NCBI GenBank assembly: GCA_045578445.1
Contig: JAZNKG010000011.1
Location: 46,633-110,632 of the forward strand
Direction: 5' to 3'
Length of the DNA: 64,000 bases
DNA from: Alphaproteobacteria bacterium
GTDB lineage: Bacteria; Pseudomonadota; Alphaproteobacteria; RF32; CAG-239
A program made the position numbers and the translations under genes. Below, one piece after another: positions 14,812 through 24,306 of the stretch (its first letter is position 1; each line of letters opens with the position of its first letter). The notes below the pieces were generated by a model. It did not search any database and had not been told where the DNA came from. It saw only the letters and a program-made list of their open reading frames with translations.

Positions 14812-16884
14812 ATGATTGATATTAAAAATTTAACAGAAATAGAGGCAAAACAACAGCTTGAGTTTTTAGCAAATGAAATAGAAAAAGCTGACATTGCATA
14901 TTATCAAAATGACGATCCATACTTAAATGATGCTGAATACGATAGATTAAGACATCTTAACCTTGCAATTGAGGCAAAATTTCCTCATTTAGTATTACCT
15001 AATAGTCCTTCTAAAAGAATCGGTGCGAAAGTAAAAAGCGAATTCAAAAAAGTAGAATTAAATATTCCCATGCTTTCTTTGGCTGATATTTTTAATGAAG
15101 ATGATGTTCATGAATTTTTGCTTAGTGTTAAAAGATTTCTTAATTCAAGCGAAGATATAGAATTTACATCTGAACCTAAAATTGACGGACTTTCTTTTTC
15201 AGCTCTTTATGAAAAAGGTGTTTTTGTTAGAGGGTCTACACGCGGAGATGGCAGAATTGGAGAAGATATTACAGAAAATCTAAGGGCTATAAAAGGTTTT
15301 CCTCTTTTCTTAGATAAAGATGTACCTGATATTTTTGAAATCCGCGGTGAAGTCTTTATGTCAAAGGCTGATTTTTTTGAATTAAATAGAAAAAATGAAG
15401 AAGAAAGTAAAAAACTCTTTGCCAATCCAAGAAATGCGGCTGCTGGCTCTTTAAGACAGCTTGATGCCAGAATTACGGAACAAAGAAACCTTAGTTTTTT
15501 GGTGTACACATGGGGGGATGTTTCTGACATCAGATGGAAGACACAGATAGAATTTTTAGAATATGTAAAATCTTTAGGTTTTCCAGTTAATCCTTATAAT
15601 AAGCTATGCAGAAATGAAAAAGAAATTTTAGATAGTTACAACTCATTAATGGAGAATCGAGCAACTCTTGATTACGATATTGATGGTATTGTTTATAAGG
15701 TTAATAGTTTAGATTTACAAAAAAGACTTGGCTTTTTAACAAGAACACCTCGTTGGGCTGTTGCTCACAAATTTCCAGCTGAAAGAGCTATTACAAAATT
15801 AAAGAACATTCGTATTCAAGTTGGACGTACAGGAGCTTTAACACCTGTTGCTGATTTAGAACCTGTCAATGTTGGAGGCGTTATTGTTTCTCATGCAACT
15901 CTCCATAATGAAGATGAAATTAAAAGAAAAGATATACGTATTGGAGATACTATTGTTATTCAGCGTGCAGGAGATGTTATTCCTCAAATTGTAGAGGTAT
16001 TGTTAGAAAAAAGAACTACTAATTTAGAAGAATTTAATTTCCCTGAAATTTGTCCTGAATGTGGAGCTCATGCTATACGTGAAGAAGATGAAGCGGTTAG
16101 AAGATGTACTGGTGGATTGTCTTGTCCAGCTCAGGCTGTTGAACATTTAAAGCATTTTGTATCTCGTGATGCTTTTAATATTGAAGGCTTAGGCGATAAG
16201 GTTATTGAAGACTTTTACAAAGAAGAAATTATTAAAACACCTTATGATATTTTTACATTAGAAGAAAGAAATAGGCCTGCGGATTTATTTTCTTTCAACG
16301 AATCTTTAAATTTAGAAAATAGAGAAGGTTGGGGAAAAAAATCTGTATCTAATTTGTTTGAAGCTATAAATAAAAGTAAAAACATTAGTCTTCAAAAATT
16401 TATTTATGCTTTAGGAATTAGACAAGTTGGTTCAGCTACAGCATATTTAATTGCAAAACACTATCATTCTTTCGATAACTTTATGACTGCTATGATAAAT
16501 ATGGATATTCAATTGCTTATAAGTATTGATGGAATTGGTCCTATTGTTGCGAATGATATTGTTGAATTTTTCAAAGAGCCTCACAACATAGATGTTATAA
16601 GTAAGCTTCTTAAAATTATTAATATTGAGGATTTTCAAACGGTACAAATTTCAAACTCAGAATTATCAGGTAAAACAGTTGTATTTACTGGGACTTTGAC
16701 AACAATGACAAGGAGTGAAGCTAAAAGTAAAGCTTTATCTGTTGGGGCAAAAGTTTCTGGTTCTGTATCTTCTCAAACAGATTTTGTTGTTGCTGGTGAA
16801 AATGCTGGTTCAAAGCTTACAAAAGCTACTGAACTTGGCGTGAAGGTTATTTCTGAAGAAGATTTTAATACTATGATTGCTTAG
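14812..16884 (+). CDS. ligA: NAD-dependent DNA ligase LigA
   Basis: The adenylation site KIDGLS, the OB domain, a Zn finger ([28 protein letters not shown]), HhH repeats and a BRCT domain are present. The start is the ATG at 14812, which has a GGAG RBS. Confidence 0.9.
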
Positions 16885-17659
16885 TTTTTCTTTTGTAGAA
16901 TATTTTATAGATATTTATAAATACAATATTAGAATAGATAATCCATACAGACATTACAAAAACTGTTACTTTTAGTTTATATATTGTATCGATGTAATAT
17001 GTTATCAAAAAGATTGCGCTTAAAAAAACAAAACATAATAAAAACTTCCAGTAGTTTCCTTTTGTTTTTTTGTATGCATCAATTATTGACCGACTTTTGC
17101 CTACGAGAGAAGATATCCAAGCCAAATATGGTCTACAAATTGTATATGGTGATATAATAGCCATAAATACATATAATAAAGTCTTTTCTGGAAGCCCGTT
17201 ATAGCTTTGTAGTATTCCCATATAATTTTCAAAAAAATCAAGGTACTTGTATTGAAATCCCATTAGCATTGGAATGTATTGAAAAATTATGGTTAGTAAA
17301 AATATGCTTATATTCATAAACATTATTTTGCTAACAGGAATTAGCCCATTGAATACCCTTATTAATGAAAAATATGGCTCTCTTTGATGTATATATCGAA
17401 TAAAAACACACAAGAAAAGATAATATACCATTAACCAAAGAATACTCAATGAGTTTTTCCAGCCATTTGGTATCAAGCTTAACGCATATAAAAAGATAAA
17501 GTTTGCAAAACACCATGAGAAAAATGTTTTCTTATAGGTGAAAGCAAACTTTATGCTACTCTTTAGAATTGATAGCAACGAAAATGATTTATAGTCAGAA
17601 TCTTTATATTTATTCTGTGTCTTCCTCAAAATCGCCTTCCTCTTCTGCGTTAGGATCAT
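16871..17659 (-). CDS. Polytopic inner-membrane protein of unknown function (about 6 TM)
   Basis: The 262-aa protein is hydrophobic and the last gene of the VirD4 cluster. It overlaps the VirD4 3' end by 50 nt in another frame and converges onto ligA with a 14-nt overlap. Confidence 0.5.
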
Positions 17660-23236: not shown

Positions 23237-23304
23237 TTTTCTTCTCCTTGTAAATTTTTTTTATCATAGCATAAAAACACAAGGTTGTCTACTTTAAAAA
23301 TAAT

Positions 23305-24306
23305 CTAAACTTTAAGTTTTTTTACATATTCTCCAATTTTTTGATTTGCTTTTATACCATCTTCTGGAGTTACTTTTATTAATCCAAAAAATTTTGGTTT
23401 TATTTTATCAAAGTCTATTGGCGCAAACATTGCTGGATTTTTTGTTAGTGCCTCAAAAGCACCTGTAGCATCATTTTGGGCGGCTCTAAAATAATTGTTT
23501 ATTAATTTATCTACATCTATAGGAAATTTCTTCTCTTTTAATTTTTTTATAAATAAAGCTTTTCGTTCTTGCAGTTCCATATATTCTTCATATAACTCTC
23601 GTTTAATACGGTTTTTTTGCATATTTTCATGCTTTTGCTTATATAAAAATTCGCAGGTTTCTACATTTATTAGTATTTCAACATACGAAATAATAGCTAA
23701 CTGCAAATCAGTATCATTCAGACTTTCTGCAAAAGTTAAATATTCCTCATCGTTTGCATCTTTTGATAATCTTTTCATATTTTCTGGATCATATCTACAA
23801 ACAATATCCCAGCAAGCTAACATATAGTTCGCTATTTTTTTGCCCACACTAGGTTTATAATTAGGAAAAAGCATTTCTTCTTTATAATCTGTTTCTGGTA
23901 CTTTGAAATTCTTTTTATCTGCCATTGTAAATATTGCATCTTGAAAATTAGATATAGCTCGAGCTAAATCTTGCTCTTCTGTTTTTAATTTCTTTTCAGA
24001 TTGTTCTTCGTTAACAGTTGTTTCTATATTTTCTTTATAAACAGTTGTTGTTAGCAAACTATCTATGCTATTTGCATCTGGTTGTGATGTTTGGGGATTT
24101 GATACGAAGCTATCTAAACTACTTAAAGATGCTTCTTCTTTAGGTGTATCATCTTGATTAATAAAACTACTTAATAAGCTAGAAAATTCATCTTCTATGT
24201 TTGAAGCTTTTGTTTCACTAGCATTTGTATCAGTAGTCTTTTTTTCGTTATTACTATTATTATCATTAGATAAAAAAGCATCTAACCCATCTAATGTATC
24301 ACTCAT
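23305..24306 (-). CDS. Hypothetical 333-aa acidic protein with a reiterated (S/D)xLDxF(L/V)S motif; no signal peptide
   Basis: The first gene of the minus-strand cluster. Its N-terminal 90 aa contain four short acidic motifs (LDGLDAFLSND, SSLLSSFINQDD, SSLDSFVSNP, SIDSLLTT). Confidence 0.5.
   Translation of the reverse strand: MSDTLDGLDAFLSNDNNSNNEKKTTDTNASETKASNIEDEFSSLLSSFINQDDTPKEEASLSSLDSFVSNPQTSQPDANSIDSLLTTTVYKENIETTVNEEQSEKKLKTEEQDLARAISNFQDAIFTMADKKNFKVPETDYKEEMLFPNYKPSVGKKIANYMLACWDIVCRYDPENMKRLSKDANDEEYLTFAESLNDTDLQLAIISYVEILINVETCEFLYKQKHENMQKNRIKRELYEEYMELQERKALFIKKLKEKKFPIDVDKLINNYFRAAQNDATGAFEALTKNPAMFAPIDFDKIKPKFFGLIKVTPEDGIKANQKIGEYVKKLKV

Follow-up and report, generated by a model that had tools for sequence, protein, structure and literature searches.

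A chromosomal VirD4-type coupling protein and its conserved operon partners in uncultured gut Alphaproteobacteria: a candidate recruitment module of a split type IV secretion system

On the Ti plasmid of Agrobacterium, the coupling protein gene virD4 is found in the virD operon, separate from virB and together with genes for substrates and processing proteins. In the rvh type IV secretion system (T4SS) of Rickettsiales, the genes are scattered and virD4 still follows virB8-B11. The main known example of an elaborate coupling complex is that of the type IVB Dot/Icm system. In the antibacterial X-T4SS of Xanthomonadales, effector-immunity pairs are encoded near virD4 and the effectors bind VirD4 (PMC6536674, PMC8740702, PMC6759196). 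Here, we describe a six-gene cluster coding for a VirD4/TraG-type type IV coupling protein (T4CP) and five further proteins, which we term A, B, C, D and F, arranged in the order A-B-C-D-T4CP-F. The cluster lies in a 64,000-nucleotide stretch of DNA (the window; positions 46,633 to 110,632 of contig JAZNKG010000011.1, assembly GCA_045578445.1) from an alphaproteobacterium of the order RF32. An earlier annotation made from the letters alone, here called the sequence-only reading, had proposed either a substrate-recruitment module attached to a channel encoded elsewhere or a non-canonical use of a coupling ATPase. We hypothesize that the cluster belongs, as coupling-protein operon, to a split chromosomal VirB/VirD4-type (P-type) T4SS, for which it would recruit substrates, and estimate the probability of this at roughly 0.58.

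The coupling protein and the channel genes of related lineages

The 739-amino-acid (aa) T4CP is matched by the Pfam families PF02534 (4.3e-54), PF12696 (TraG-D_C, 1e-22) and PF10412 (TrwB_AAD_bind, 4e-17) and is the only one of the six cluster proteins to match a curated family in the Pfam scan. These matches and the intact Walker motifs establish it as a VirD4/TraG coupling ATPase, as the sequence-only reading had assigned it. The GTGKT residues of Walker A and the DE residues of Walker B are invariant in 32/32 aligned orthologs. The protein keeps the full VirD4 architecture without added domains, starting with two transmembrane (TM) segments (hydropathy peaks at aa 19-37 and 90-114) and including an all-alpha insertion and an acidic C-terminal tail. 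Since it scores far under every curated cut-off of the NCBIfam equivalogs (for instance, 127 bits versus 728 for PRK13897) and has no match in the PDB, either as a single sequence or as a profile, it belongs to a divergent VirD4/TraG subfamily. Three chromosomal relatives of 1001-1022 aa (P0363, P0370 and P0375) carry an extra C-terminal extension of ~300 residues.

T4CP relatives were found in 368 species-level genomes, and the best 80 of these 368 (65-94% identity) were fetched as loci. The hosts of these best 80 are all uncultured Alphaproteobacteria from the guts of humans, ruminants, rodents and birds, often deposited as 'Acetobacter sp.', 'Rhodospirillaceae' or 'Ca. Scatocola'. Genomes of the order RF32 are ~1.6 Mb in size (PMC8199421). 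The source organism is thus a member of an uncultured gut-lumen lineage with a reduced genome and not a known endosymbiont, and the comparison with endosymbionts drawn in the sequence-only reading is not borne out, the T4CP relatives being uncultured alphaproteobacteria of gut and rumen. The order A-B-C-D-T4CP is kept in 80/80 species-level loci, with rluD and rpoH adjoining in most and dnaE-parBA-gidBA-mnmE in some species. Across the loci, T4CP identity (65-94%) is similar to that of LigA (68-90%) and higher than that of RluD (54-80%). This synteny near rluD-rpoH identifies the cluster as an old, vertically inherited chromosomal module; it contradicts the earlier view of an operon inserted between ligA and rluD. 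A recent insertion or mobile element was ruled out by the synteny and by the lack of integrase, relaxase and repeats. A second sample was obtained by scanning a metagenome collection with the D alignment, which gave 80 gut and rumen contigs with GC contents of 32-58%; T4CP directly follows D in 71 of them. Among the solitary chromosomal T4CPs, those paired with D thus form a large subgroup associated with the gut.

The closest T4CPs of known context are found on plasmids. In a plasmid collection, T4CPs aligning over >80% of the length (27-33% identity) were present exclusively on alphaproteobacterial megaplasmids. In the three that were inspected, from Erythrobacter (E. aureus), Sphingosinicella and Microvirga (32-33% identity), the T4CP gene closes a canonical VirB2-B11-VirD4 cluster. 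An upstream MobA/MobL relaxase is annotated in Erythrobacter and Sphingosinicella, and none in the Microvirga stretch examined. The window T4CP is co-linear with those of these Agrobacterium-type VirB/VirD4 systems (MPF-T) over ~92% of the length at 33% identity. In contrast to these systems, virD4 is here chromosomal, vertically inherited and located away from virB11 and relaxase genes, and its partners A, B, C, D and F lack homologs in the plasmid clusters; A, B, C and D were each searched for there and not found.

The evidence that carries our hypothesis comes from one related lineage (locus L110, re-fetched as L175 and L176), whose T4CP and D are 56% and 40% identical, respectively, to those of the window. 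In L175, a virB cluster without virD4 starts 5.7 kb from a C-D-T4CP-X-Y module, in which X and Y take the place of F. The cluster, in the order virB8'-virB7-like-virB8-virB9-virB10-virB11, lies on the opposite strand in divergent orientation, four housekeeping genes separate it from the module, and virB11 is directly followed by flaF, not by virD4. It codes for a 66-aa VirB7-like lipoprotein, a VirB9 (CagX) protein and a 2205-aa VirB10 protein with beta-flower repeats and a TrbI domain. The presence of virB7-B11 without virD4 near a homologous module is most simply read as the module T4CP being the cognate coupling protein of that channel. The VirB7, VirB8, VirB9, VirB10 and VirB11 proteins of L175 are 30-39% identical to those of the megaplasmid systems and the T4CP is 33% identical to the same systems, which is consistent with a common origin of channel and T4CP. 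The VirB9 cluster of this lineage is found on contigs of up to 357 kb and is therefore chromosomal. A further locus lacking virD4, L177 (GC 42%), was the one contig retrieved from a viral-contig collection with a VirB11 query, and contains a gene for a giant beta-flower VirB10 followed by a VirB11 gene whose product is 69% identical to that of L175; a VirB4 query of the same collection found nothing. In none of the ~170 module loci does virD4 adjoin virB11.

These findings favor the recruitment module with a channel encoded elsewhere that had been offered in the sequence-only reading, with the channel of the window genome itself extrapolated. The same reading had held that the gene order occurring widely beside a full virB operon in relatives would speak against it; the module does lie near virB in relatives, in one lineage among the ~170 loci, and next to a virB7-B11 half-operon only. 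The system shares with the Rickettsiales rvh system its chromosomal P-type genes, their scattering into islets, a duplicated VirB8 (here in L175) and a reduced genome. It differs from rvh in that flaF follows virB11 (L175), in that the organism is an uncultured inhabitant of the gut lumen that is not known to be intracellular and in that VirB10 is enlarged by beta-flower repeats.

Several features of these VirB loci are recorded as side observations. The VirB10 giants (2205 aa, L175:11521-18138 and L110:1-2062, minus strand; 1406 aa, L177) contain beta-flower (PF21784/PF21785) and RHS-like repeat arrays between the N-terminal TM segment and the TrbI domain, and a separate 1039-aa beta-flower protein is encoded just upstream of the L177 VirB10 (L177 coordinates 59-3178 and 3184-7404). 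VirB9/CagX (L110:2059-3582, the same as L175:10001-11524) has a C-terminal peptidoglycan-binding SPOR domain (PF05036, 5.7e-5), and the megaplasmid VirB9s align over that region. Right after virB11, L177 contains a prophage-like segment (L177:10423-17980) with a tyrosine integrase, a reverse transcriptase and an Mtd-N-domain protein, that is, a diversity-generating retroelement; this segment explains the occurrence of L177 in a viral collection.

More distant relatives of the T4CP are also encoded away from VirB genes. A profile search of 1.84 billion representative proteins gave graded T4CP relatives, and the genomic context of five was fetched (Table 1). Graded relatives in such contexts indicate that solitary chromosomal VirD4-like genes are widespread in alphaproteobacterial metagenome-assembled genomes (MAGs). 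The pentapeptide-repeat proteins next to two of them (L093:8772-10001 and L094:9006-9998) have basic termini, and their genes overlap the T4CP start or lie 2 nucleotides (nt) off. Pentapeptide-repeat fold proteins are known as DNA mimics. Small prepilin-like proteins are encoded beside the solitary T4CPs of two outgroup lineages (L090:9503-9958 and L091:13437-13880); their N-terminus consists of a G/xxxxE motif and a hydrophobic helix, with a weak N_methyl match (E 0.017).

Operon partners and the variable downstream cassette

The six genes are encoded on the minus strand between ligA and an rluD-type pseudouridine synthase gene, followed by a gene for an rpoH-like sigma factor (Table 1). The spacing between them is 68, 14, 54, 12 and -50 nt. 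Their coordinates, common direction and gaps agree in full with the sequence-only reading, as do the acidic nature of A and B and the membrane predictions for C, D and F, for which hydropathy gives 2, 2 and ~5 TM-like segments, respectively. Since all six open reading frames (ORFs) are conserved in dozens of species, they are not chance ORFs. A, B, C and F have no match in Pfam, NCBIfam, PADLOC or the PDB in sequence and profile searches; for D, the same searches gave NERD in its orthologs and nothing else. Promoter and terminator scans of the cluster were uninformative in this AT-rich DNA (window GC ~30%).

Table 1. Features of the window and context of distant T4CP relatives. Positions are those of the window; percentages are identities to the window T4CP.
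Feature	Positions	Strand	Size	Remarks
ligA	14794-16884	plus		One flank of the cluster
Gene F	16871-17659	minus	262 aa	ORF
T4CP gene	17610-19829	minus	739 aa	ORF
Walker B of T4CP, LFVLDE	18204-18221	minus		DE = aa 541-542
Walker A of T4CP, APPGTGKT	19305-19328	minus		GTGKT = aa 171-175
Gene D	19842-21170	minus	442 aa	ORF
NERD / PD-(D/E)xK fold domain of D	19845-20339	minus		Cytoplasmic, C-terminal
Acidic insertion of D domain, EIGDWLADEEKFNDEEPLWFSESSHRISPV	20121-20210	minus	30 residues	Hyper-conserved, family-specific
K/P/T-rich linker motif of D, HALFNFDEDDFDFDFDF	20571-20621	minus		Near-invariant, acidic-aromatic; consensus ALFNFD.DDFD.DF
Two-TM hairpin of D	20853-21170	minus		
Gene C	21225-21713	minus	162 aa	ORF
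Gene B	21728-23236	minus	502 aa	ORF
Amphipathic/hydrophobic segment of B, KDIMAVFWGMILEFYGWCIDKMVDIPLDFMTWVLY	22778-22882	minus	35 residues	Conserved
'GIS.AY' element of B	22985-23005	minus		Conserved
(T/I)PP repeat linker of B	23030-23083	minus		
Gene A	23305-24306	minus	333 aa	ORF
Short linear motif of A, IEDEFSSLLSSFI	24160-24198	minus		Family consensus DDEFEKLLNxFI
rluD-type pseudouridine synthase	24389-25378	plus		Other flank; rpoH-like sigma factor next
T4CP relative L091				50%; D homolog (E 1e-54) immediately upstream; housekeeping flanks
T4CP relative L092				48%; between rluD-like and rpoH-like genes
T4CP relative L090				46%; after ruvB-ybgC, GC-61% MAG
T4CP relative L093				40%; translationally coupled pentapeptide-repeat protein upstream
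T4CP relative L094				35%; translationally coupled pentapeptide-repeat protein upstream

The AlphaFold2 model of D, based on 45 orthologs, begins with a long TM hairpin of two helices (aa 2-106), which a disordered stretch of ~170 residues connects to a C-terminal domain (aa 278-442) modeled at a pLDDT (predicted local distance difference test) of ~90. The C-terminal domain has the alpha-beta-beta-beta-alpha-beta core of restriction-endonuclease-like folds. Pfam NERD (PF08378) is found in D orthologs, with the window D itself below threshold. Unlike NERD-domain proteins in general, D has replaced the (D/E)xK signature by D-K/R-E (D304...D319-K/R320-E321, with D304, D319 and E321 conserved and K320 <90% conserved) and contains a family-specific acidic insertion of 30 residues with the consensus GDWLA(D/E)EE.FN.E.PLWFSE..HR.SPV. 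This insertion and the linker motif are the most conserved elements of D across 80 species. We read D as a putative membrane-tethered docking domain, probably non-catalytic, rather than as an active nuclease. Neither the fusion of a NERD domain to a two-TM hairpin nor a linkage between NERD and T4CPs was found in the literature.

Hydropathy shows C to be an inner-membrane protein with two TM segments, from which a short basic tail extends into the cytoplasm. The TM hairpins of C and D are paralogous (hhalign, family versus family, 98.2% probability, E 4e-14), and in the more distant L175 lineage the C-like protein is a full-length D paralog of 350 aa that is matched by the D hidden Markov model (HMM) over both domains. 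Hence, C is a truncated duplicate of D.

A and B are acidic proteins (pI 4.8 and 4.9, respectively) without TM segments. The N-terminus of the cytoplasmic protein A is acidic and disordered. Its C-terminal domain (aa ~105-300) is conserved and made up of helices only, and the protein ends in a conserved basic tail, KFFGLIKVTPEDGIKANQKIGEYVKKLKV. In a structure model of A, the helical domain is confident and its structural matches are to generic bundles only. According to the alignments, DDEFEKLLNxFI is the sole N-terminal element kept family-wide. The N-terminus also contains GLDSF-type repeats (GLDAF, SLDSF and SIDSL in the window, within 24100-24300), of which an A protein has 0-5 copies by the strict pattern LD[SGDN][FLM] and up to ~8 by a broader pattern in the alignment. 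GLDSF(V/I)T-type repeats are confined to a close clade, with 0 copies in distant orthologs, which suggests that the motif underwent rapid expansion and contraction among close species. B is fast-evolving, with a variable helical region toward the C-terminus, 10-24% identity beyond the closest species and a length of 427-771 aa. Only the 'GIS.AY' element and the 35-residue amphipathic segment are conserved, and no consistent Pfam match was obtained among 32 orthologs.

By analogy, the arrangement recalls the Legionella Dot/Icm coupling complex (DotL-DotM-DotN-IcmS/W-LvgA-DotY/Z), in which a T4CP likewise stands beside a two-TM partner with a cytoplasmic receptor domain (DotM-like), small acidic adaptors and acidic motifs. 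There is, however, no sequence or fold similarity: our searches found no homology of the partners to DotM, DotN, IcmS/W, LvgA or DotY/Z, the T4CP is VirD4-type and not DotL-type, D is unlike DotM, A is a generic bundle and the channel in relatives is type IVA. A DotL/DotM-like (type IVB) reading was rejected because of the VirD4-type T4CP, the nuclease fold of D and the generic bundle of A.

The genes downstream of the T4CP gene are lineage-variable and lie outside the universal core. In 51 loci, the window among them, the T4CP gene is followed by that for F, a polytopic membrane protein with ~5 TM-like segments; in the window, the F gene begins 50 nt before the T4CP gene ends. As alternatives to F, X (~200-350 aa) is present in 29 loci and Y (~145 aa) in 24 loci. 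Y matches the SUKH/SMI1-KNR4 family in 9/17 members (best E 3.5e-5) and also the SUKH protein of PDB entry 2icg. In polymorphic toxin systems, members of the SUKH superfamily typically serve as immunity proteins. The C-terminal part of X contains an invariant motif, H.K.P...GG....N......P.H...H, which can be aligned with the HNH motif of the colicin E9 DNase (hhalign E 0.024) and weakly resembles the pyocin AP41 DNase in a PDB profile search (E 1.4), both at the motif level only. In six loci (L038, L042, L047, L056, L068 and L072), a third cassette of three small ORFs (~85-105, 103-172 and 151 aa) unrelated to F, X and Y was observed. Similar to the X-T4SS of Xanthomonadales, a candidate pair of toxin-like and immunity-like genes directly follows virD4 of a putative chromosomal VirB/VirD4 system in relatives of the window organism; by this analogy, the X-Y pair points to a possible antibacterial role in the gut. 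Differences from the X-T4SS are that no XVIPCD was identified (the libraries used contain no XVIPCD model), that the toxin domain of X is C-terminal, that A-D are absent from X-T4SSs, that the lineage belongs to the Alphaproteobacteria and that the window operon has no toxin-immunity pair. Because X-Y is absent and F is present there, the antibacterial reading is not based on the window locus.

The remainder of the window was annotated with Pfam as housekeeping, including genes for glycogen phosphorylase, aldolase, ABC-F proteins, IF3, DnaJ, Tgt, RecN, ExbBD, a BatA-D-like operon, TsaE, MlaEF, RadA and TyrRS. As noted in the sequence-only reading, no VirB/Trb/Dot, relaxase or integrase families are found in the 64 kb by this annotation and no oriT-like inverted repeat by a repeat scan, the sole notable repeat being the coding PPT repeat at 23030-23083. 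The BatA-D-like operon (52278-57313, plus strand) codes for DUF4381, VWA, VWA+TPR and BatD proteins and is followed downstream by genes for an SNase-domain protein, TsaE and a stand-alone HPr-kinase C-terminal domain protein (58598-59026); BatA-D-type operons are linked to aerotolerance in Bacteroides. Four further conserved ORFs lack a Pfam hit in the contig annotation: 11415-12842 (minus, 475 aa), 13706-14596 (minus, 296 aa), 27765-28670 (minus, 301 aa) and 28735-29565 (plus, 276 aa).

Proposed mechanism and rival explanations

We propose the following model. The ancestor may have been an alphaproteobacterial conjugative system, from which virD4 would have left its place at virB11 in the ancestor of the gut lineages and then have become fixed in an operon with lineage-specific partners. 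The T4CP would form a hexamer in the inner membrane, and D and its truncated paralog C would sit beside it by means of their shared two-TM hairpin. The long tether of D could place the nuclease-fold domain and the acidic-aromatic motifs at the cytoplasmic face, where they may provide a docking platform. A, as an acidic helical bundle, and possibly B might function as adaptors or be substrates themselves; candidate substrates are B, X or unlinked effectors. Together, the partners would choose the substrates and pass them on to a VirB channel whose genes lie at another place in the genome. The cargo in related lineages may include the putative HNH-like toxin and the SUKH immunity protein encoded right after the T4CP, and the system may act against other bacteria. 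What we observe are the gene content, its conservation, the folds, the paralogy and, in a relative, virB7-B11 without virD4; we infer that the proteins physically associate, what A-D and F do, that this genome encodes VirB proteins and which cargo is moved.

Several observations weigh against this hypothesis. In searches with plasmid and L175 queries, VirB genes were found within 10 kb of the module in just one lineage (L110/L175/L176) of the ~170 loci; in L175 virB7-B11 were seen and virB2-B6 were not, and the VirB channel of the window's low-GC clade is extrapolated from these relatives. Sequence, profile and structure searches detected no homology between A-D and known T4SS adaptors, so that operon membership and architecture are what suggest their coupling-complex role, and the nuclease fold of D could equally point to DNA handling. 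The HNH-like similarity of X is confined to the motif (E 0.024 pairwise and 1.4 against the PDB), and the window operon has F in place of the X-Y pair.

The absence of VirB genes within 10 kb in almost all loci would also fit a domesticated, stand-alone T4CP. According to this explanation, no VirB channel exists in the clade, and the T4CP together with D, C, A and B forms an autonomous inner-membrane translocase in the style of FtsK/SpoIIIE or Streptomyces TraB. The core cellular function of this translocase would be to transport or process DNA, or to export a protein no further than across the inner membrane. The module is indeed part of the core, syntenic and conserved like housekeeping genes, among which it lies (near dnaE-parAB-gidAB-mnmE in some species), and D has a nuclease-superfamily domain. 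Distant solitary T4CPs (35-50% identity) are likewise encoded among housekeeping genes, with other coupled partners of the pentapeptide-repeat (L093, L094) or pilin-like (L090, L091) kind. Nevertheless, we consider a stand-alone translocase unlikely: a relative with a homologous module has virB7-B11 without its own virD4, the T4CP retains the full VirD4 architecture without new domains, the canonical catalytic (D/E)xK of D is not conserved and the toxin-immunity-like pair that relatives encode behind the T4CP is more in line with secretion than with the handling of chromosomes. The non-canonical use of a coupling ATPase raised in the sequence-only reading is therefore disfavored by the relatives and kept here as a rival. 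Slightly more doubtful still is the specific version in which the low-GC gut clade lost its VirB channel and the T4CP with D, C, A and B became an essential-like autonomous translocase. If true, a conjugation motor would have been turned to a core task, which may also hold for the solitary T4CPs with pentapeptide-repeat proteins.

As the closest T4CPs of known context are part of conjugative clusters with MobA/MobL relaxases, the cluster could alternatively be a remnant or an active part of a conjugative or DNA-release system, in which the T4CP and the NERD-fold D would process and export DNA through a T4SS, either to release chromosomal DNA or to mobilize an element, D having replaced a relaxase or accessory nuclease. 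NERD and PD-(D/E)xK domains typically process DNA, and the Agrobacterium virD operon combines DNA-processing proteins with VirD4. We consider this improbable, since no relaxase, oriT-like repeat, integrase or replication gene is present in the window or the ~170 module loci, the catalytic triad of D appears degenerate, the acidic insertion is unsuited to DNA binding and, unlike a mobile element, the module is strictly vertically inherited at one chromosomal site. An anti-phage or anti-plasmid defense system, combining an FtsK/HerA-like ATPase with a nuclease-fold effector and membrane proteins, was rejected based on the PADLOC results and the distribution and is hardly credible: no PADLOC model matched any of the six proteins (T4CP, non-significant, 0.003), the ATPase is a true VirD4 anchored by TM segments, and the clade has inherited the module vertically, universally and in synteny, whereas defense islands are patchy.

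Implications for gut Alphaproteobacteria and type IVA secretion

The T4CP is a known kind of protein, and a virD4 operon apart from virB, which the sequence-only reading had regarded as unusual, has precedents in the virD operon of the Agrobacterium Ti plasmid and in the scattered rvh genes of Rickettsiales. What appears to be new is the accessory set, consisting of a NERD-fold membrane protein and its paralog, an acidic helical-bundle protein and a hypervariable protein. The same applies to the strictly vertical mode of inheritance in uncultured Alphaproteobacteria that are abundant in the gut, to the enlargement of VirB10 by beta-flower repeats and to the possible toxin-immunity cargo. A literature search returned nothing relevant on T4SSs of RF32, orphan T4CPs or links between NERD domains and T4CPs, and no publication on any of these apparently new features was found.

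RF32-like low-GC alphaproteobacteria, none of which has ever been cultured, occur widely in the guts of humans, ruminants and birds. If our hypothesis is true, their operon, in which four or five undescribed proteins accompany the coupling protein, would represent a type of substrate-recruitment platform that is new for type IVA systems. If the toxin-immunity cargo is real, bacterial killing by T4SSs would extend from Xanthomonadales to abundant gut Alphaproteobacteria. A, C and D also provide a defined set of proteins for studying how VirD4-type ATPases select their substrates.

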